Assembly (NCBI GenBank): GCA_003252295.1
Contig: QKEV01000013.1
Location: 25,920 to 89,919, forward strand
DNA length: 64,000 nt
Source: a bacterium
GTDB lineage: Bacteria; Patescibacteriota; Minisyncoccia; Phycocordibacterales; UBA12088
Direction of reading: 5' to 3'
Under the pieces are notes generated by a model that did no database searches, had not been told where the DNA came from, and saw only the letters and a list, made by a program, of their open reading frames with translations. The translations under genes were made by a program, and so were the position numbers. Shown here one piece after another: positions 55,059 to 64,000 of this stretch (positions are counted from its first letter, which is position 1; the number at the start of each line of letters is the position of its first letter).

Positions 55059-55508
55059 TTAATTACTTGTACTTTCTTTAATTTCCTGGCGTTGCTTATC
55101 TAGATAAGTTTGTAAAATAAGAGCTGCTGCTGCTGCATCTACATCTATTTTTTTATTTTTCCTTGTTTTTACCTTATCTTCTAGAGCGCGACGAGCTTCT
55201 GCACTGGTGTACATCTCACTCACCTCCTCAACAGTTAACCCTGTCCTCACTTCAAGAGCACGTGAGAAAATAGCAATACGATGCACTATTGCATTCTCAC
55301 CACCAGCAGGATTATCCGCCTCACCTACAACAATCTTTTCTGCGCCTTCCTTTCGAGCAAGTTCTGCTATTTTTTCTAGGAGGGTGTCATCGTTCGGTAG
55401 CACATCTTTTGCAAACGCAAAAAACTGTGCATCATCAGAAACAGCAACTCCAACACGCTTCGCGCCATAGTCTACACCAATAACTCTACCTATCATTGCT
55501 ATGAGCAT
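55059..55508 (-). CDS. ruvX: Putative pre-16S rRNA nuclease / Holliday junction resolvase-like YqgF (RuvX)
   Basis: 149 aa; GVDYGAKRVGVAVSD and IVVGEADNPAGGEN motifs. Confidence 0.88.
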   Translation of the reverse strand: MLIAMIGRVIGVDYGAKRVGVAVSDDAQFFAFAKDVLPNDDTLLEKIAELARKEGAEKIVVGEADNPAGGENAIVHRIAIFSRALEVRTGLTVEEVSEMYTSAEARRALEDKVKTRKNKKIDVDAAAAALILQTYLDKQRQEIKESTSN

Positions 55509-55604
55509 AGCATTTTATACACTCAAATTACAGTGGAAAGGTAAAGTATTTCAAAAAAGAAAAAATCTGGTAAGATAACCACACTCAATTGAATATTGTG
55601 TACT

Positions 55605-55692
55605 GGAGGGGTGGCTGAGAGGTCGAAAGCACCTGTCTTGAAAACAGGCGTATCGAGAGGTACCGTGGGTTCGAATCCCACCCCCTCCGCCA
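55605..55692 (+). tRNA. tRNA-Ser (anticodon TGA), CCA encoded
   Basis: GGAGGGG TG GCTGAGAGGTCGAAAGC A CCTGT-CTTGAAA-ACAGG, long variable arm, GGGTTCGAATCCC, CCCCTCC G CCA. Confidence 0.9.
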
Positions 55693-55766
55693 GTTAGAGC
55701 TAGCACGAGACGCGTCAGAAATGATGCGTTTTATGCTAGTTTTGTAATAAGGGATATTGAGCTATT

Positions 55767-56261
55767 ATGTTGTTGATGAATGTACAAATACATAAATATA
55801 GAAGATTGCTTGTACTTGCAGTAAATGAATTGCTTAAGAAAGGATGTATTTCCTTAGATTATATTAATGATGAAAGAGATGAAAAAGAATTTGGACATCT
55901 TCAAACAAAACTTGTAGGATTTGAATCCATTATTCTATGGAGAAATATAGGTTACGGAGAACTGAAAGTGTCTGTTTGGTGGAATTATAATCACTCAAAA
56001 CACCCTCAGGCTGAAATGGAAGGTGATATGTATGAAAAATTCGATCATGAAAGTCCACTTGCAAAAAAAACAAGTTATCAAAATTTTGTGGGGGCAGTGA
56101 TCTCAGGAACGCTTGAAAGGAAAACTGGAAAATATTTGATGGGAAAAAACAGTGACGGAATAAGTCGCATATACCTTAGAAAAGATATGGGTGATATTTT
56201 AAACAACTTAGTTTCTCCTACTGCAACAGGATACTCCCCAGAAGGTAAATTTCATTTTTAA
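55767..56261 (+). CDS. Hypothetical protein, first gene of the island
   Basis: 164 aa; AT-rich codon usage; no recognisable motif. Confidence 0.3.
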   Translation: MLLMNVQIHKYRRLLVLAVNELLKKGCISLDYINDERDEKEFGHLQTKLVGFESIILWRNIGYGELKVSVWWNYNHSKHPQAEMEGDMYEKFDHESPLAKKTSYQNFVGAVISGTLERKTGKYLMGKNSDGISRIYLRKDMGDILNNLVSPTATGYSPEGKFHF

Positions 56262-56307
56262 TTTATTTTTTAGATATAAAGACGTTGATATTAGGACTAA
56301 GTGAATC

Positions 56308-58596
56308 CTAATTTGAATTTCCTTCAACAATCTTCTTAACTTTCTCAAACACACTTCTCTCATATTCATCAAAACTATCACTGATTTCTTTAGCAAAATC
56401 CGAATTCGGGTTTTCATAGAACTCAAGGATTTTATGGGGCACCCCATAGTCTCCAACAAGACGACCCTCTTCCGTCAACGCATTATATTCCAGTCTTAAC
56501 AACAAGATATCTATACCCGACACTTCATCAAATGTTTTGTTGGTTTCTGTTGTGCGAATAAACTTGTACATCAAATTAAATACTCCGAGATATTTAACTG
56601 CTTGGTACTTCAAAGTGTTGTAGATAAAATCAGCTGTTTGTCTTATTGCCTCATCAACTTTACCACCTTTATCAATCTTAAATCGCATTGACCCAGCAAA
56701 TCCATCTCGCATGTAATAATGAAGCAAGAAAACAAATAGCGAATATTCCCTATCACCAATTCTTTGGTCTATTAAATATGACAATTTTTCATTATTTACA
56801 ATTGGTCGCACTACATTAAGCAGTATTTGTAGACCCTCAAAATCTACTCCTGAAGAAGTGTTTATATGGGCAATAAGTTTTCTTATCTGTGCTCTTTCGT
56901 CTTGAGTCAACTCCTTTATCCTGTCGTAAACTTTTATCTTGTCTTCTCGGCTAACAACCTTAAATCTGTCCATGATTTCTTCAGGGATTTCTCTTTCAAG
57001 CTGTTCTTGTACAATATTCTTCTTTCTCCCTAAATCTTCAATACTAAGATATTGCTCTTTTGAATAAAACAAATCGATTTCATCCTTGACCGAGTTAACG
57101 TCATAGTTTTTGTGTTTAATTTCCAAAGGACTGGAATCAACAGCATCCATAAATTTATTTTGTAAGACAATAACCCTACCACTATAGTGATGTTGGAACC
57201 TACCAGCTCTGCCAGCGATATTTTTTGCATCAAATCTTTTAAGATCTTTATCCCCTTTTTTTGATTGCACTACAATTAAATTTTTAGCTGATGTGTTTAC
57301 TCCTTCAGTGATGGTTGTGGTCGATATCAATATAGATAGTTTCCCTTCATTGAAAAGTGAAACTATCTCCTTCTGGATATATTTTGGAACAAGTCCATGA
57401 TGAATACCAACACCATTCTTCAATGCGTTGATTAGAACCCAGTCCTTATGAAAATTTTCTTCAAGATGCTTTATGAAAAATTCATAACCAGAAAAATCCC
57501 ATCTGTTATTATTTTCCGATTTGATAATATACTTTGCATATCGCTCTACATCACCTCTTCTTGGGCAATATAAAATTGTATTTTCATTTCTTTTCTCCAA
57601 GTCAGACAATATTTTCATCAATCTTTGAATCTTTCTGTTATTTTCAAAATTTACTATGAAACCTTCATCAACAATCAGTTGTTTTCTATTTGTCACCTCG
57701 ACATATTTTTTGCCTACAGTTTCAATATTATTGAAATTTAATACTTTAACATGATTTTCTTTTAGAAAGAGGTTGAATGAGTTCGTGTCTGATTTGGAAA
57801 ATTCAATATAAGGACCTGCCATTAAAATATCGGTATCCCCTTTAAGTGAGTAGTGTGTTGCAATTCTATATGCGACATCACGCTCGTTTTCTTTTGTCTG
57901 GTCATCTACAATATATTCATTATCTATTTTGTACACCTCATCAATAAACACAAAATCAAATGTAATGTTTTTCGTATTTCTTTCGAGAAAAGAAAGGAAT
58001 CTCTCTGGTGTATATATAAAAATATTTTTATCTCCAATATCATCCACTTCACTCAATGTGTGAATTGTGTATTCGGTTTCTAAATCAGAATACTCACTGT
58101 TTGTATTGATACGTTCAAGATTTTCTGACAACAAAGCAATCGTAGGGAAAATCAAAACTACATTTTTATACTTCATTTTCCTAATCACTTCGTAGGCAAC
58201 AAAAGTCTTTCCAAAGGAAGTGCTGGCTGACAGAAAAAACCTATTAAGCTCCCCTCGTTTAAACGTGTCAACAACAGTCTTTTGATATTTGTGTAATTTT
58301 AGTGATTCTGATCTATGAAGGACGCTCTCGTAGAATATCGCTGAAAAAGTATTCAAATTGAATACCTCAAAGTCTTCGATTTTGTTGAATTTTGATAGCA
58401 AGTCGAAATAATGAGGTATGCCAACAACGTTTGATATGAATTTCAAGAACTGAAAATCAGCTTGTGACAAAGGCTGATTTTTAATATCATCAAAATAAGA
58501 ATTGACCACGGTTATAAGCTCGTGGTCACGAATCTCATCATTTCTATATTTATTTATAGACGTTATGACATCAGCTCCTTTTTTGATTCTATCCAT
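56308..58596 (-). CDS. Superfamily-2 helicase (DExH-type), HamB-like
   Basis: 762 aa; Walker A LSASTSFGKTF, Walker B VFIDEVY, helicase-C motifs ITEGVN and AGRAGRF; overlaps the upstream DUF1837-like gene by 34 nt. Confidence 0.6.
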   Translation of the reverse strand: MDRIKKGADVITSINKYRNDEIRDHELITVVNSYFDDIKNQPLSQADFQFLKFISNVVGIPHYFDLLSKFNKIEDFEVFNLNTFSAIFYESVLHRSESLKLHKYQKTVVDTFKRGELNRFFLSASTSFGKTFVAYEVIRKMKYKNVVLIFPTIALLSENLERINTNSEYSDLETEYTIHTLSEVDDIGDKNIFIYTPERFLSFLERNTKNITFDFVFIDEVYKIDNEYIVDDQTKENERDVAYRIATHYSLKGDTDILMAGPYIEFSKSDTNSFNLFLKENHVKVLNFNNIETVGKKYVEVTNRKQLIVDEGFIVNFENNRKIQRLMKILSDLEKRNENTILYCPRRGDVERYAKYIIKSENNNRWDFSGYEFFIKHLEENFHKDWVLINALKNGVGIHHGLVPKYIQKEIVSLFNEGKLSILISTTTITEGVNTSAKNLIVVQSKKGDKDLKRFDAKNIAGRAGRFQHHYSGRVIVLQNKFMDAVDSSPLEIKHKNYDVNSVKDEIDLFYSKEQYLSIEDLGRKKNIVQEQLEREIPEEIMDRFKVVSREDKIKVYDRIKELTQDERAQIRKLIAHINTSSGVDFEGLQILLNVVRPIVNNEKLSYLIDQRIGDREYSLFVFLLHYYMRDGFAGSMRFKIDKGGKVDEAIRQTADFIYNTLKYQAVKYLGVFNLMYKFIRTTETNKTFDEVSGIDILLLRLEYNALTEEGRLVGDYGVPHKILEFYENPNSDFAKEISDSFDEYERSVFEKVKKIVEGNSN

Positions 58597-59504
58597 GATA
58601 TTACATCGCGTTTAATCCCACCCACATCATCTACTGGTAACAAAATGAAAAAAAGGGAGAAATCTATTGATAAATCAGACTTAAGTGTGTCATGCACTTG
58701 ATCAACGTACTCGGGTATCTTTTTGATACTAGCATCGTAGTCTTTCTCACCTTCATAGAGGAGAAATATTGGGTAAACAAATTTTACGTTGTATTTCTCC
58801 AGCTCTTCGGCTAAAACGATTTGAGGGTTGGACCGCCATGCATCAATGAGCTTCCCAACTACACTGTTCTTCGTGTCGATGTTAAGATTGTTTTTATTGT
58901 TATCAATAATTGCTAACAGGTTTTTACTTAGGTACTTTTTTGAAAGTACTTTTTCTAACTTCCAGCCAGATTGAAGTCCTTTAGAAGCATCTTCTGCACC
59001 AAGAACACTGTTGATTGCCGCTTTGTAATTTTTATAAAACTTTGCCTCTCCGAACCACAGTTCAACAGTGTCATTGTGTTCGACTAAATGATAGGCGTCA
59101 TATCCCTTTGGTTCGGAGTTCTCTAATGGAGAATAAAAATAGCCCCTAGCAATTATTGGTTTGGTACCGTATATCACTTGCAGAATTGAAAAAAGAAGTA
59201 TTTCGCCATAAAAACCATATTTACTTTTCTCTAAATCTTCGGCATTACTGTCGTACTTAATTTTTGTTTCCAGAGCTCGAGCGTGTAGATTTGCATAGTC
59301 GTCTGGGTCAATATCATATTCATTAAAAGAAAAATCTATTAGGGCATTATAAATTATTTCCTTCAAAGACTCCGTATCATAAGCAGAGTAACAATGATCG
59401 TGGTCGGTGCTAATCTTTGCGGCTGAAATAGACTTGCTTGAGTGTGGCAAATGATATTCCAAAACTACTGTCTTCTCTATTAAATCTTGTAGTGATTGCC
59501 TCAT
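58563..59504 (-). CDS. HamA/DUF1837-like protein with PD-(D/E)xK-type motif, partner of the helicase (Hachiman-like pair)
   Basis: 313 aa; D...ELWFGEAK (D-E-x-K) nuclease-like motif; size and position (immediately upstream, overlapping) match Hachiman hamA-hamB. Confidence 0.45.
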   Translation of the reverse strand: MRQSLQDLIEKTVVLEYHLPHSSKSISAAKISTDHDHCYSAYDTESLKEIIYNALIDFSFNEYDIDPDDYANLHARALETKIKYDSNAEDLEKSKYGFYGEILLFSILQVIYGTKPIIARGYFYSPLENSEPKGYDAYHLVEHNDTVELWFGEAKFYKNYKAAINSVLGAEDASKGLQSGWKLEKVLSKKYLSKNLLAIIDNNKNNLNIDTKNSVVGKLIDAWRSNPQIVLAEELEKYNVKFVYPIFLLYEGEKDYDASIKKIPEYVDQVHDTLKSDLSIDFSLFFILLPVDDVGGIKRDVISWIESKKELMS

Positions 59505-59534
59505 GGTTAAAATTGATAATACCCAAACATATTT

Positions 59535-60050
59535 TTACCAATTCTGCCACTCTACAGGAGTTCCGAATCGATTTATACTCAATAACTTCTTACTACGCTT
59601 TTTATCAAAAGCAATCAGGATGAAACTTTTGTTGTCATCATACTCTCCGCCTGTTTCTTGGGAAATTCTTGATAGTTTTTCAAGGTCTCCAGCAATAATT
59701 CTATCGTACTTAGTGTTGCTTTCTTTGTTATTTAATCTGCGTAATTTGATTTCGATGATACAGTAGTATTTATTGAATGAATACCCTTTCGAAGGCAACC
59801 TAACAGGATTGACATTAAGATTTCTGTGATCAAGTACAACCAAATCTGAACGGTATTTCAAGTCATTGTTCCTTCCGTACCATCTTACCTCAGCATGCAC
59901 ATTCACATTTCTGTTTCCGTTTAGTGCGGACTCAAGTTTTGTATATAGCCTACAACGAATATCATCTTCAGTGAGAAAATCATCCATGCGCCACTTACTG
60001 GAATAAAACTCTGTGACTGCTTTTAATATTGTTTTTTGAATTTTACTCAT
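59535..60050 (-). CDS. Small PD-(D/E)xK-like protein, function unknown
   Basis: 171 aa; SDLVVLD...YCIIEIKLRR resembles a restriction-endonuclease-fold core. Confidence 0.35.
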   Translation of the reverse strand: MSKIQKTILKAVTEFYSSKWRMDDFLTEDDIRCRLYTKLESALNGNRNVNVHAEVRWYGRNNDLKYRSDLVVLDHRNLNVNPVRLPSKGYSFNKYYCIIEIKLRRLNNKESNTKYDRIIAGDLEKLSRISQETGGEYDDNKSFILIAFDKKRSKKLLSINRFGTPVEWQNW

Positions 60051-60074
60051 GATGTGACGCGACTCTTTATGCTC

Positions 60075-61463
60075 TTATGATTTACAAACTTCCTTAAGAT
60101 AACCAATGTTTAGCCAAAAACACTTCTTTGTAACTTGTTCACCTTGAGGTGTTCCGTATGTATCCTCAGCATTTTTGGCATGAGGTCTTACGTGAGACAC
60201 ATTTGATTCATTTGATGTTGGTAGCCTATCTGAGTGACCTGCGTTAATTCTTTTGATAGTCATCTCCCAAACACGCCGAGCTTCAACAAGGTCACTAGTT
60301 GGCATTGTCCAAAAAAACACCCTCTCTAACAGTCGGTCTTCTTCTTTGGCACATACATTTGTACACTTATACACGACAAAAAGGAAACGTGACTCAAGTT
60401 GCTTCTGGAACTCAGCACGCACCTCATCCTCTTCCTCGTCACCATCCCACACCTCATTGATGATCTCGGTGTATTTGAATGTCGGGAATGACATAGCTTC
60501 TTTTGGTGTACCGTCAGCCTTAAGCTGAATGGTCTTCATTGTTACTCCTGCAGCCTCAAACTCCTCTATACGTTTCTTCTTCACTCCCATCATGGCTCTC
60601 GCCAATACCGCATACTTATCTTTCTGCTTTTCCTTGAGTTCAACACCAAGTTCCTTGGCTATCGTACTCACTGATTTCCCAAGATACGGAGTGAATCTGT
60701 CTATGACCTGTTGTTCGAACGACCTGTCTTCAGAGAGTTCTCTTTCCGTAAGCAACTGTTCGATATCATCATCATCACCTAACTCCCTCTTGAGAAGTCG
60801 TGTCATGTAACTCGACTTATAGGAGAATGCGCGTGGCTTTGCTTTTGGTCCATTCACCTGAGGTCGTCGGTTTGCTGACGTTGCTGATTTCGTACAAGCA
60901 CCAAGATACATCGTGTCTCCCTCTGACAGCTCATGTGCAAGGTTGGCTTTGATCTTCGTGTTTATCTTCTCCCAATCCTCTCGAATGATCTTCTGGTCCT
61001 CTTTTGGCAGTTTGTCGAATTCATAGAGCTTTGCCAAAAGGAATCGAACATCACCGATCGTCTTACCTTCCTCATGAAGGTAAGAGAGTAACATCAGTTT
61101 CTCATTCTTCTTGAAATACGAACTGGTCTTGAACTCTCGCTTCGTCTCTTCAAGATAATCGATCATTCCAAGTACCAGTCGCTCCTTAGCAGCATAACTA
61201 CCATTCTTGTTCTTCTTTACAGGGGTCGTCTTGAGTTCGACACCTGCTTCCTTGAAATCGGGGGAGCCGTCACCTTCTGGATGTATGTCGTAATAATATC
61301 TTTCTACCACGTTCCCGAGAGAGCCACGTGTTCGTCCCGAGATAGGTAACCCTTTCTCGCTTTGAGGTACTTCTTGTACACCCTGAACCATAGTTAGACT
61401 ACCGCCCACAAGACGCTTCCCGTACTCCTCTATACTTTTTGGATCTGTTTGATCGTACTGCAT
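60075..61463 (-). CDS. MutH/Sau3AI-family type II restriction endonuclease (GATC-type by family)
   Basis: 462 aa; N-terminal catalytic motif GSPDFKEAGVELKTTPV equals MutH PDF...GVELKT; size and two-domain layout like Sau3AI. Confidence 0.7.
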   Translation of the reverse strand: MQYDQTDPKSIEEYGKRLVGGSLTMVQGVQEVPQSEKGLPISGRTRGSLGNVVERYYYDIHPEGDGSPDFKEAGVELKTTPVKKNKNGSYAAKERLVLGMIDYLEETKREFKTSSYFKKNEKLMLLSYLHEEGKTIGDVRFLLAKLYEFDKLPKEDQKIIREDWEKINTKIKANLAHELSEGDTMYLGACTKSATSANRRPQVNGPKAKPRAFSYKSSYMTRLLKRELGDDDDIEQLLTERELSEDRSFEQQVIDRFTPYLGKSVSTIAKELGVELKEKQKDKYAVLARAMMGVKKKRIEEFEAAGVTMKTIQLKADGTPKEAMSFPTFKYTEIINEVWDGDEEEDEVRAEFQKQLESRFLFVVYKCTNVCAKEEDRLLERVFFWTMPTSDLVEARRVWEMTIKRINAGHSDRLPTSNESNVSHVRPHAKNAEDTYGTPQGEQVTKKCFWLNIGYLKEVCKS

Positions 61464-61554
61464 ATTTGATCTTTGACCACATCTGTGTTCGAATAGGTCA
61501 CGAACTTGATCTCACCAATTTCCGATGATATGATAGTAGCACTCGAAGAAAGGT

Positions 61555-62874
61555 ATGGCTAGAAAAAACAGTAATTTAAGGGTCATTGAATTGTTTGCGG
61601 GAGTGGGTGGTTTTAGGGTCGGTTTTGAGAATGCTGCAAAGAACAGGTTCAATACCGTATGGTTCAATCAATGGGAACCTGGGAAGAAACAACAGCATGC
61701 ACACGATGTGTATACAAGACACTGGGGCTCGAAAGGTCTCAAGCATACGGAAACCGATATAGAAAAGGTTGTGAGAGACCACATCGACGTTGTACCTGAC
61801 CACGATCTCTTGGTCGGAGGTTTCCCATGTCAGGATTACTCTGTTGCGAAACCATTACGACAATCTGCAGGAATAATCGGTAAAAAGGGGGTCCTTTGGT
61901 GGTCCATAGTCTCATTGGTACAACAACTCCAAGAAGACAAAAAACGTACTGCGCCTAAACTGTTACTCCTTGAGAATGTCGACCGACTCTTGAAATCCCC
62001 TGGAACTCAACGTGGACGTGACTTCGCTATCATGCTTCGTTCACTAGAGACACTTGGGTACGATGTCGAATGGCGGGTCATCAACGCCGCTGATTATGGT
62101 TTTCCCCAGAGACGTAGGAGGATCTTCATCCTTGCCTACAAGAACGATACAGGCATAGCAAAAGAAATGCGTAAACAAGGACACGAGAAATGGTTCCGAG
62201 CAGGGACACTGGGAAAGGCATTCCCTATCGAACATCCAGACCTGTCTCATTTCCAAGAGATACTTCTTGAAGAAGATGAGAAGCAGATATCTGACAATTT
62301 TGGTCGAGGTCTTAAGATCTCCCCTTTCCATAACGCTGGAGTGATGATCAAAGGTAGGGTGTATACAGGCAAGGTCACCCACAAGGCACCGAGGTCTTTC
62401 GTCACTCTAGGTGACCTACTTCTCACAGACGAAGAGGTCATTGAACGATTCGGTGAGAAGTACTTCATTGATGACAAGGGTGTCATTGCCAAATGGGAGG
62501 TACAAAAAGGACCAAAGAAGATCGAGCGTATCAACAAACAAACAGGTATACCGTACACGTTCTCAGAGGGCGGCATGGCTTTCCCTGACCCACTTGAAAG
62601 ACCATCAAGGACCATCGTGACAGGTGAAGGTGGTAGTGGTCCTTCACGTTTCAAACATGTGGTAAGGTCACCACAAAGTGGACGCTTCCGAAGACTCACC
62701 CCTGTTGAACTTGAGCGACTCAGCATGTTCCCTGATGATCACACAGCCCTAGGTCTTAACGGAGAGATGTCTGACAATACGCGTGCATTCTTCATCGGTA
62801 ACGCACTTGTCACAGGTGTCGTCACAAAGATAGGAAGGCAGTTGATAAAACATGTCGATGAATACGGAGTCTAG
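61555..62874 (+). CDS. DNA (cytosine-5)-methyltransferase
   Basis: 439 aa; motifs I LFAGVGG, IV GFPCQDYS, VI ENV, VIII QRRRR, X GNALV. Confidence 0.92.
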   Translation: MARKNSNLRVIELFAGVGGFRVGFENAAKNRFNTVWFNQWEPGKKQQHAHDVYTRHWGSKGLKHTETDIEKVVRDHIDVVPDHDLLVGGFPCQDYSVAKPLRQSAGIIGKKGVLWWSIVSLVQQLQEDKKRTAPKLLLLENVDRLLKSPGTQRGRDFAIMLRSLETLGYDVEWRVINAADYGFPQRRRRIFILAYKNDTGIAKEMRKQGHEKWFRAGTLGKAFPIEHPDLSHFQEILLEEDEKQISDNFGRGLKISPFHNAGVMIKGRVYTGKVTHKAPRSFVTLGDLLLTDEEVIERFGEKYFIDDKGVIAKWEVQKGPKKIERINKQTGIPYTFSEGGMAFPDPLERPSRTIVTGEGGSGPSRFKHVVRSPQSGRFRRLTPVELERLSMFPDDHTALGLNGEMSDNTRAFFIGNALVTGVVTKIGRQLIKHVDEYGV

Positions 62875-63307
62875 GGAATACGTACGTGACAAACGTTCTC
62901 CAAAACCAAAAAGTAAGGGTGTCTCGCGAGTAATGCGTGCAAACAAGGCGAAGGATACAGGACCAGAGATACTTCTCAGAAAAGAACTATGGAAGCAGGG
63001 GGTTCGAGGGTACCGCCTCCATAAACGCATTGGAAACACCAGACCTGATATCATCTTCCCAAAACAAAAAGTGGCCGTCTTCGTCAACGGTTGCTTTTGG
63101 CATCAGTGTCCATACTGCAAACTCCCATCGCCAAAGAACAATACGGATTTCTGGTCAGAGAAATTCACAAAGAACAAGGCGCGTGACCAAAAGAAGAGAA
63201 CGGAACTCAAGAAACTTGGCTGGAAAGTGGTCACGATATGGGAATGTAGATTGAAAAAGAGCATGATCAGACAAGCTGACAAGATACGCCTCAATCTATC
63301 AATATGA
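62852..63307 (+). CDS. vsr: Very-short-patch repair endonuclease
   Basis: 151 aa; PDIIFPKQKVAVFVNGCFWHQCPYC; overlaps the MTase 3' end as in dcm-vsr pairs. Confidence 0.9.
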   Translation: MSMNTESREYVRDKRSPKPKSKGVSRVMRANKAKDTGPEILLRKELWKQGVRGYRLHKRIGNTRPDIIFPKQKVAVFVNGCFWHQCPYCKLPSPKNNTDFWSEKFTKNKARDQKKRTELKKLGWKVVTIWECRLKKSMIRQADKIRLNLSI

Positions 63308-63857
63308 CATTCTTTTCCTTCAACGATATTTGAGATCTAAAACATCCAAGTATCTCCCTTTTCTCTTCCAGAGTTCCCTCTTTGAGAAGGAACTTCACAT
63401 AGTTCTTGGTATCTATGTCTGACACCTTTGTGTTTGTTCTCTTCCCCAACAAGCTACTCTGGAAACGCTTCTGTCTTGTCACCTCTTCTTTAATCTTCCT
63501 GATGATACCTGTCTCATTGAGTTCAACTGTATCTACCAGTCCCTGAAGTTGTTTTATAAGCACATCTTCGTTTATGTACCCACACTTGCAGTACTTATCA
63601 CGTGCTTTCGTACAGCCATAGTAGACATACGTGTTCACTGCCCCGTTCTTCAACTTCTTGTACTTCTCGTCTGCCGATATACCACTTCCACATAACCCGC
63701 ACTTCATGAGTCGTGTGAATGCGAATTCTTTCTCTTGCCGAGTCTTCAGTGTATTCCCTTTCAATTGTTCCTGTACGAGGTCAAAAAGTTCTTTGGTGAT
63801 TAGAGGTTCATGTTTTCCCTTGTACCATTTTCCACTCTTCCTTGGATACTCAAACAC
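63291..63857 (-). pseudogene. C-terminal part of a large serine recombinase (zinc beta-ribbon + coiled-coil); upstream part interrupted by an in-frame stop and continuing past the window
   Basis: KCGLCGSGISADEKYKK...VYYGCTKARDKYCKCGY is the recombinase zinc-ribbon. Translation upstream of 63857 (…KMFEKVAYEKWSGKKLYHWLKFDLNFRALPSKK) is recombinase-domain-like but ends in TGA just before this ORF. Confidence 0.5.
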
Positions 63858-64000
63858 TCCGTAGTAGAAATGGTTCTCAAGTAAGTAGTAGATTTAAATG
63901 TTTCTTACTAGGAAGCGCACGAAAGTTGAGATCAAACTTGAGCCAATGGTAGAGCTTCTTTCCACTCCATTTCTCATAGGCGACCTTCTCAAACATCTTC

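Follow-up and report, generated by a model that had tools for sequence, protein, structure and literature searches.

Two small unannotated genes in a tRNA-adjacent defence island of a Patescibacteriota bacterium: a predicted nuclease found behind restriction–modification genes and a mobile-element cargo protein

What are the two small genes that lie among the defence genes of a tRNA-adjacent island in a bacterium of the Patescibacteriota, and do they belong to the systems that surround them? The island is found in a stretch of 64,000 nucleotides, called here the window (contig QKEV01000013.1, positions 25,920 to 89,919, assembly GCA_003252295.1, from the lineage UBA12088 of the Minisyncoccia). 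It contains a complete Hachiman pair (hamA and hamB), a complete restriction–modification (RM) module and two open reading frames (ORFs) without a name, ORF164 (164 aa) and ORF171 (171 aa) (Table 1). An initial annotation, made from the DNA letters, had placed ORF164 as the first gene after the tRNA, facing the defence operon, and ORF171 between the restriction enzyme and a HamA-like gene; it proposed both as candidate components of defence or anti-defence by guilt by association. The coordinates and the layout are as it described. With a probability of about 0.55, we read the two as unrelated genes from two unannotated families, neither of which is part of Hachiman, with ORF171 an add-on nuclease of RM systems and ORF164 a cargo gene of the island.

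Both ORFs are conserved, genuine genes and not chance reading frames, since many homologs of each are found. ORF171 has 80 homologs at 37%–57% identity, and an exhaustive profile search extends the family to 447 cluster representatives at E ≤ 1e-3, in bacteria and archaea; nearly all are stand-alone proteins of 160–240 aa. The few sources with a name are metagenome-assembled genomes (MAGs) of Minisyncoccia, Nanoarchaeota and Helarchaeota. For ORF164, there are 16 direct homologs (44%–64% identity), and a profile search raises the number to at least 400. Those with a source name, among them Rhizobium, Agrobacterium, Flavobacterium, Chitinophaga, Polaribacter and Bosea, are all labelled hypothetical. 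Both ORFs were scanned with four profile libraries (Pfam, NCBIfam, PHROGs and PADLOC v2) at permissive thresholds. The statement that neither protein carries an assignable motif holds: there is no significant match in Pfam, PADLOC, NCBIfam, PHROGs or the PDB sequences (for the latter, each family profile was searched up to E ≤ 10), and neither ORF has homology to housekeeping proteins. Against Pfam at E ≤ 1, ORF171 gives one match only, at chance level, to an importin HEAT-repeat family. Literature searches returned no description of either family. Outside the window, the two families never co-occur, and hhalign detects no relationship between their profiles. A gene that also codes for 164 aa lies beside an ORF171 homolog in one metagenomic locus (L003); it was considered as a relative of ORF164 and is unrelated.

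ORF171 is a basic protein, with an isoelectric point (pI) of 9.6. In an alignment of 78 homologs, the residues H52, E54, R56, W57, Y58, R67, D69, K88, E100, K102 and R105 show no variation, and conservation is 90% or higher at T27, E28, D30 and R32, the first three of which lie where helix 2 begins. The D...EIK core that had been pointed out in this protein corresponds to D69...E100-I-K102, with D69, E100 and K102 all in the invariant set. The AlphaFold2 (AF2) model is confident (predicted local distance difference test, pLDDT, 91.7; predicted template modelling score, pTM, 0.88) and has the order alpha–alpha–beta–beta–beta–alpha–beta–beta, with helices 3–17 and 28–42, strands 49–57, 66–74 and 95–104, helix 112–133, and strands 142–149 and 154–159. 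In the model, E28 opens the second helix, D69 lies on beta2, and E100-x-K102 on beta3. An acidic residue on beta2, a (D/E)-x-K on beta3 and an acid on the preceding helix form the classic PD-(D/E)xK layout.

When the model is compared with the PDB by Foldseek, most of the top 50 matches are PD-(D/E)xK proteins, with probabilities up to 0.99, although all are weak by E-value (3e-3 to 6e-2) and by template modelling score (TM-score ≤0.46). The matches include NucC, MGME1, the Cas4 protein SSO0001, DrdV, the structure 3ijm, RecE, SPARDA nucleases and cap-snatching endonucleases. Since the fold matches are weak and no profile links ORF171 to a nuclease family, the assignment rests on the topology of the model together with the motif. 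On these grounds, the model presents ORF171 as a minimal protein of the restriction-endonuclease fold with an intact E28...D69...E100-x-K102 site, and it would probably act as a nuclease.

The most frequent structural match is NucC (6p7p, 6q1h, 7zgw; probabilities 0.8–0.96), an effector of CBASS and of type III CRISPR systems. NucC shares the restriction-endonuclease-like core and is a defence effector, but it is larger (~240 aa), has cyclic tri-AMP as its activator and assembles into trimers and hexamers, whereas ORF171 has 171 aa and no ligand-binding insert. The TM-scores between the two are 0.34–0.44, their sequences are not similar, and neither CBASS nor CRISPR genes are found near ORF171. 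The best Foldseek probability, 0.99, is to 3ijm, a protein of restriction-endonuclease-like fold from Spirosoma linguale that is, like ORF171, a stand-alone single domain (145 aa) and whose function is also unknown; the comparison has E = 1e-2, TM-scores of 0.40/0.46 and 14% identity.

The genomic contexts of the ORF171 family were read in 80 metagenomic loci and several contigs, with our own ORF calling and clustering of the neighbours. Members of the family usually close an operon: the gene upstream of them has the same orientation in 68 of 75 loci, at a distance of at most 30 bp in 33 of these. Matches to RM seeds occur at position −1 in 20/69 loci and at −2 in 9/48, as against 1/66 at +1 and 6/158 at six or more genes away. 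The upstream enrichment has an odds ratio of 8.3 (p = 2e-7), a value that is inflated because the seeds were drawn from the neighbours themselves. The seed search marks 29 of 81 loci as RM-positive, and other evidence adds three (L052, L070 and L019). The argument from association is supported for ORF171 by a position-specific tie to RM genes (the 20/69 at −1); for ORF164, for which only scattered defence genes are found nearby, it is loose. With regard to co-occurrence, RM genes recur upstream of ORF171 homologs, whereas HamA or HamB is present in none of the ~80 loci. Published work presents Hachiman as a two-protein complex, HamAB. ORF171 is read as an RM-linked add-on and not as a part of Hachiman because no homolog locus holds HamA or HamB; the family is linked to defence, with RM operons of any type and not with Hachiman.

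The RM partners are diverse. The largest cluster of neighbours is an Eco57I/type IIG-like N6-adenine methylase of ~1150–1240 aa, present in 22 loci and directly upstream of the ORF171 homolog in 17 of them. Elsewhere, the upstream genes are a type I operon hsdM–hsdS–AAA_13–hsdR (L020), a Dam-type type II pair (L013, L016), type III systems (L004, L052), or YhcG with a T5orf172–ResIII helicase (L011). Modules of C5 methylase and Vsr, as in the window, accompany homologs in four loci (L039, L085, L048, L070). In a neighbour-joining (NJ) tree, the homologs beside methylase subtypes a and b fall in separate groups, and the clade of the window protein has mixed RM partners. In the alignment of the type IIG-like methylases, an N-terminal "PD...K" region is only partly conserved, which is no guide to whether these enzymes are without a nuclease of their own.

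Since methylases that are unrelated in class and in specificity all have this conserved protein beside them, ORF171 is unlikely to be a cognate, sequence-specific enzyme, and we prefer to see it as a probable auxiliary or back-up nuclease. In the mechanism that we propose, ORF171 would be an add-on nuclease gene that follows the Sau3AI-like restriction gene on its 3′ side, and would cleave nucleic acids in a metal-dependent way, together with the upstream restriction function or as a back-up to it. It would be the usual tail gene of an RM operon that, here, happens to abut hamAB, and the close packing of the island may lead to its co-transcription onward into hamA–hamB.

Two kinds of known accessory genes invite comparison. 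Vsr and other small RM accessory nucleases are, like ORF171, small single-domain additions to a pair of methylase and restriction enzyme. The profile of ORF171 has no similarity to that of Vsr (nor to that of YhcG), and Vsr occurs only with C5 methylases, whereas ORF171 homologs occur with N6-adenine, Dam, type I, type III and C5 systems. The anticodon nucleases of the PrrC/RloC type, with an AAA_13 domain, are latent effectors embedded in RM loci. The possible analogy is with a gene that lies within RM operons of several types and is co-transcribed with them. On the other hand, PrrC and RloC join an ABC-ATPase-like part to an anticodon-nuclease domain, a fold different from a minimal PD-(D/E)xK core, and neither latency nor a trigger by anti-restriction is evidenced for ORF171. 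Genes with AAA_13 are found beside ORF171 homologs in L004 and L020.

In the loci with the type IIG-like methylase, a third gene is frequent: an HKD(PLD)–SNF2 helicase of ~1070 aa is additionally present in 11 of them. The order methylase, small nuclease of the ORF171 family and HKD(PLD)–SNF2 helicase is seen in L062 (6279–15421) and L043 (3304–10531), and the cassette is also found in L030, L046, L051, L060, L066, L076 and L087. A pair of genes for an M78 peptidase and a DUF4411 protein directly follows the ORF171 homolog in five loci and is often inserted inside the cassette.

Several points weigh against the reading of ORF171 and ORF164 as an RM add-on nuclease and an island cargo gene. Besides the inflation of the enrichment and the weakness of the fold matches, already given, among the curated nuclease families of Pfam, NCBIfam, PHROGs and PADLOC, none matches ORF171 significantly by profile; many of its homologs stand beside non-RM defence genes or beside nothing recognizable; by GC content, it groups with HamA and HamB and not with the restriction enzyme, as would fit a joint acquisition with Hachiman; and ORF164 has no conserved partner.

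The variety of neighbours is the starting point for another possibility, in which ORF171 would be an autonomous, single-gene defence nuclease that gathers in defence islands without any functional link to RM. The non-RM neighbours include Avs2, Avs3, PifA/KAP NTPases, HerA, an AAA_15 protein with DUF2130, a DpdB-like protein and a toxSAS-like RelA_SpoT protein. Some loci are without a defence gene nearby, the clade of the window protein has the mixed contexts mentioned above, and one family member, fused to a DUF5677 domain, stands alone in an integrative element. Yet the polarity is strong, with the close same-strand upstream genes described above and with RM genes upstream and almost never downstream; two clades follow the methylase subtype; and 171 aa leave no room for a separate domain that would act as sensor or reader. 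We consider such autonomy unlikely.

The fusion is a protein of 681 aa (P0223; L132 8001–10046) with the ORF171-family domain at its C terminus; the integrative element that carries it also has P4 cII-like, HigB and M78 genes, a tyrosine integrase and a serine recombinase. The closest homolog of ORF171 with a usable context (54% identity; L090 8314–10519) follows a gene for 345 aa, unknown, and a toxSAS-like RelA_SpoT gene of 210 aa, and adjoins a type IV pilus operon, as in the window.

Small PD-(D/E)xK proteins also include repair enzymes, such as the Vsr of this same island, and two of the contexts look metabolic or ordinary. ORF171 could then be a nuclease of repair or resolution, outside defence, or a catalytically inert structural protein, and its neighbourhood would be incidental. 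Against this stand the full catalytic motif, which is invariant, the patchy distribution of the family in islands and its low GC; the lack of profile similarity to Vsr and the position-specific enrichment beside RM genes also speak against it. We regard both versions as quite improbable.

Finally, could ORF171 be a third, lineage-specific component of Hachiman, co-transcribed with hamA–hamB, that modulates the HamA nuclease or adds to it? The layout invites the question: ORF171 lies 24 bp downstream of the restriction gene and 30 bp upstream of hamA, all on the minus strand, with no terminator-like site in either gap (the scan for promoters and terminators gave signal at the level of shuffled sequences). 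There is a precedent in Hachiman variants known to have recruited extra genes, such as the Pez-Ham and trypsin–MBL modules. The base composition also seems to favour it. GC content is 31%–37% over 55.75–60.1 kb and 43%–49% over 60.25–63.1 kb, and ~44% in the rest of the window. By gene, ORF164, HamB, HamA and ORF171 form a block at 33%–37% (33.0% for HamB, 36.5% for HamA, 35.5% for ORF171), and the restriction enzyme (44.3%), the methylase and Vsr form a block at 44%–47%. The step between the blocks is sharp and falls at ~60.1–60.25 kb, at the 3′ end of the restriction gene. However, members of the ORF171 family are below their surroundings in GC in 90% of loci (median −4.9%). The families of ORF171 and ORF164 are both generally AT-rich relative to their surroundings, so GC is a weak guide here to whether ORF171 goes with Hachiman or with RM.

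The comparison with HamA itself does not help. HamA is adjacent to ORF171, is co-oriented with it and is called a nuclease in the literature, but it has 313 aa and is always paired with HamB, whereas ORF171 homologs never are, and the hhalign probability between the two is 0.3%. A truncated paralogue of HamA was considered for ORF171 and rejected on this comparison of profiles. The ORF171 family is absent from 72,556 PLSDB plasmids, 50,697 INPHARED phage records and IMG/VR; because of this absence, no Hachiman locus in those plasmids and phage records can carry an ORF171 homolog. With no HamA or HamB in ~80 family loci, with this absence, with no profile similarity to HamA and with a low GC that is general in the family, a role of ORF171 within Hachiman is very improbable.

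ORF164 is a different case. The family occurs in two architectures: a short one of ~152–170 aa, to which the window protein belongs, and a long one of ~220–250 aa with an N-terminal extension. The N-terminal 50–80 residues of the long form (in P0089, P0090, P0130 and P0142) weakly resemble positions 1 to ~58 of Pfam Glyoxalase_8, below threshold. In 16 sequences, 27 positions are invariant, including a WW-x-Y-x-HSKHPQA block; the invariant polar residues E65, S77, H79, Q81, E90, E117, R118 and R138 suggest, as far as conservation can tell, an enzyme or a specific binder. The AF2 model has a pLDDT of 85.6 and finds no match by Foldseek in the PDB or in BFVD. The nearest structures, at chance level, are p32/Mam33 and SycE-type chaperones, with a vague likeness of helix and antiparallel sheet (E 0.3–4, TM-score 0.17–0.24, probability ≤0.11) that counts as no match; p32 is strongly acidic, whereas ORF164 is basic (pI 8.5; family median 9.1).

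The contexts of ORF164 were read in 32 genome loci, several contigs and 11 plasmids, of which eight are conjugative. No single neighbour recurs in all of them, and little can be read from most contexts. Long-form homologs (~245 aa) lie between a MobA/VirD2-type relaxase and a TraG/TraD-type coupling protein in five Bacteroidota loci that resemble integrative and conjugative elements (ICEs) or conjugative transposons (L100 7745–12605; L095, L101, L106, L110). The closest homologs (63% identity) are in two other genomes of the candidate phyla radiation (CPR); there, the CTP synthase gene and a tRNA-Gln lie upstream, and the homolog is the first gene past the tRNA (L007 7639–8450; L128 5621–6344). 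In the first of these, the island that follows the homolog has an HTH_17 gene, a helicase of 1585 aa and a WYL protein. On plasmids, the homolog is flanked by a GNAT gene and a TIR-domain gene (Agrobacterium pAt2), near Abi and VapBC genes (an F-type plasmid of Kosakonia), or 1.3 kb from a RES NAD+ phosphorylase (Serratia). Among 145 neighbours within three genes of ORF164 homologs in 30 loci, the PADLOC scan gives scattered matches, about a tenth of the proteins being defence proteins: a ThsB-type TIR, PDC-S66, type IIG RM, OloB, LmuA, a DRT reverse transcriptase, DrmD, IetS and Avs1a. No defence family stands beside more than three members, and none of 35 family loci holds HamA or HamB. ORF164 is a cargo of mobile elements that often lands among defence and toxin genes, and its role would most likely lie in the conflict between mobile elements and hosts.

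Within such a conflict, ORF164 could be a counter-defence protein, anti-restriction or otherwise, of use to a mobile island on entry into a new host. The conjugative plasmids and the position between relaxase and coupling protein speak for such a role, and so do the share of defence proteins among the neighbours and the fact that, in three CPR loci (the window and the two just cited), the gene lies at the border of a tRNA-adjacent island. On the other hand, the family is absent from IMG/VR and from the INPHARED phages, the protein is basic and not an acidic DNA mimic, and searches of PHROGs, Pfam and BFVD reveal no similarity to a known anti-defence family. We regard a counter-defence function as improbable.

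The neighbours that degrade NAD+ suggest yet another role, that of an immunity or partner protein of RES or TIR toxins (RES and TIR domains both degrade NAD+), of which the window copy would be an orphan. The homolog directly follows a RES-domain gene in L008 and L107 and directly adjoins a TIR gene on Agrobacterium pAt2 and in a Bosea MAG, besides the more distant RES gene on the Serratia plasmid. But the L008 and L107 islands are of the same type and count as one event, most of the ~33 loci are without such a neighbour, no NADase is present in the window, and the numbers are too small for statistics. We judge a tie to NAD+-degrading toxins decidedly improbable. The loci with RES genes are L107 (7988–10459) and L008 (2297–4780), from Massilia and a metagenome contig, and those with TIR genes L125 (8014–10436) and L111 (9248–10468), from Agrobacterium pAt2 and the Bosea MAG.

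The results on both genes are leads and not discoveries, and the current understanding stands. ORF171 represents a new family in a well-known nuclease superfamily and in a familiar genomic niche, for which the four libraries scanned, PADLOC v2 included, have no matching model. A bolder statement, which we regard as doubtful, would be that the ORF171 family is a widespread add-on nuclease behind every RM type, a fixed third part of the methylase and HKD–SNF2 module and a booster of restriction or a back-up effector, and that ORF164 represents a new fold family in conflict systems. If the ORF171 family does work with RM systems, it would amount to a generic accessory module common to type I, II, IIG-like and III systems of bacteria and archaea, and would define an unnamed cassette of three genes, methylase, small nuclease and HKD–SNF2 helicase. 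ORF164, conserved in several hundred clusters, present on plasmids and ICEs and with a confident predicted structure without match, is a concrete target for structural and functional work.

The genes around the two ORFs are collected in Table 1. The tRNA-Ser marks the left edge of the island and is the sole match of the Rfam scan; ORF164 starts 75 bp after it. ORF164 and hamB are convergent, with 46 bp between the stop codons and no significant hairpin there (z = −0.33). The hamA and hamB genes overlap by 34 nt, and HamB also matches Pfam DEAD, Helicase_C and ResIII. The complete RM module that adjoins ORF171 consists of the MutH/Sau3AI-like enzyme, the C5 methylase and Vsr; the genes of the last two overlap by 23 nt. 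The large serine recombinase occupies two reading frames, with its upstream part in another frame, and is either frameshifted or a remnant.

Table 1. Features of the island (positions in the window)
Feature	Position	Strand	Evidence and description
tRNA-Ser (anticodon UGA)	55605-55692	+	ARAGORN; Rfam tRNA 63.4 bits
ORF164, 164 aa	55767-56261	+	No family match; unannotated family borne by mobile elements
HamB, Hachiman helicase	56308-58596	-	PADLOC HamB1 PDLC00191, E = 0, 1037 bits, full length
HamA, Hachiman DUF1837 nuclease	58563-59504	-	Pfam HamA 2.6e-24; PADLOC HamA1 PDLC00167 3e-111
ORF171, 171 aa	59535-60050	-	No family match; small basic protein of predicted PD-(D/E)xK fold
Type II restriction endonuclease, MutH/Sau3AI-like	60075-61463	-	Pfam MutH 1.1e-30 (two stretches); PADLOC REase_II 7e-87
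C5 cytosine DNA methyltransferase	61555-62874	+	Pfam DNA_methylase 2.1e-56; PADLOC MTase_II 6.9e-151
Vsr very-short-patch repair endonuclease	62852-63307	+	Pfam Vsr 4.6e-21; PADLOC Vsr 8.4e-21
Large serine recombinase remnant	63291-64000, running off the window	-	Pfam Recombinase and Zn_ribbon_recom on 63291-63857

A separately assembled Logan contig of 7747 bp (L127, from SRR7216773) is identical to positions 55695–63441 of the window. It starts 2 nt past the tRNA-Ser, stops within the recombinase remnant, and spans ORF164, HamB, HamA, ORF171, the restriction enzyme, the methylase and Vsr. Assemblies often break where strains differ, and the match therefore suggests, without being proof, that the ORF164-to-Vsr segment is an insertion that varies between strains of the sampled community. 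A search of 55500–64000 for att-like direct repeats of the 3′ end of the tRNA-Ser gave chance-level repeats only, and the right boundary of the island may lie beyond the window. An alignment of the spacers between tRNA and ORF164 in the three CPR loci gave no element end common to the window and the other two. ORF164 would be cargo at the tRNA-proximal edge of a mobile island. The type IV pilus genes nearby and the homologs that carry the name Minisyncoccia point to a CPR origin, and the island as a whole illustrates how RM and Hachiman systems are stacked in tRNA-adjacent defence islands of CPR (Patescibacteria-type) genomes. To the left of the tRNA-Ser, at 51.4–54.1 kb of the window, pilM-like genes form a type IV pilus neighbourhood.

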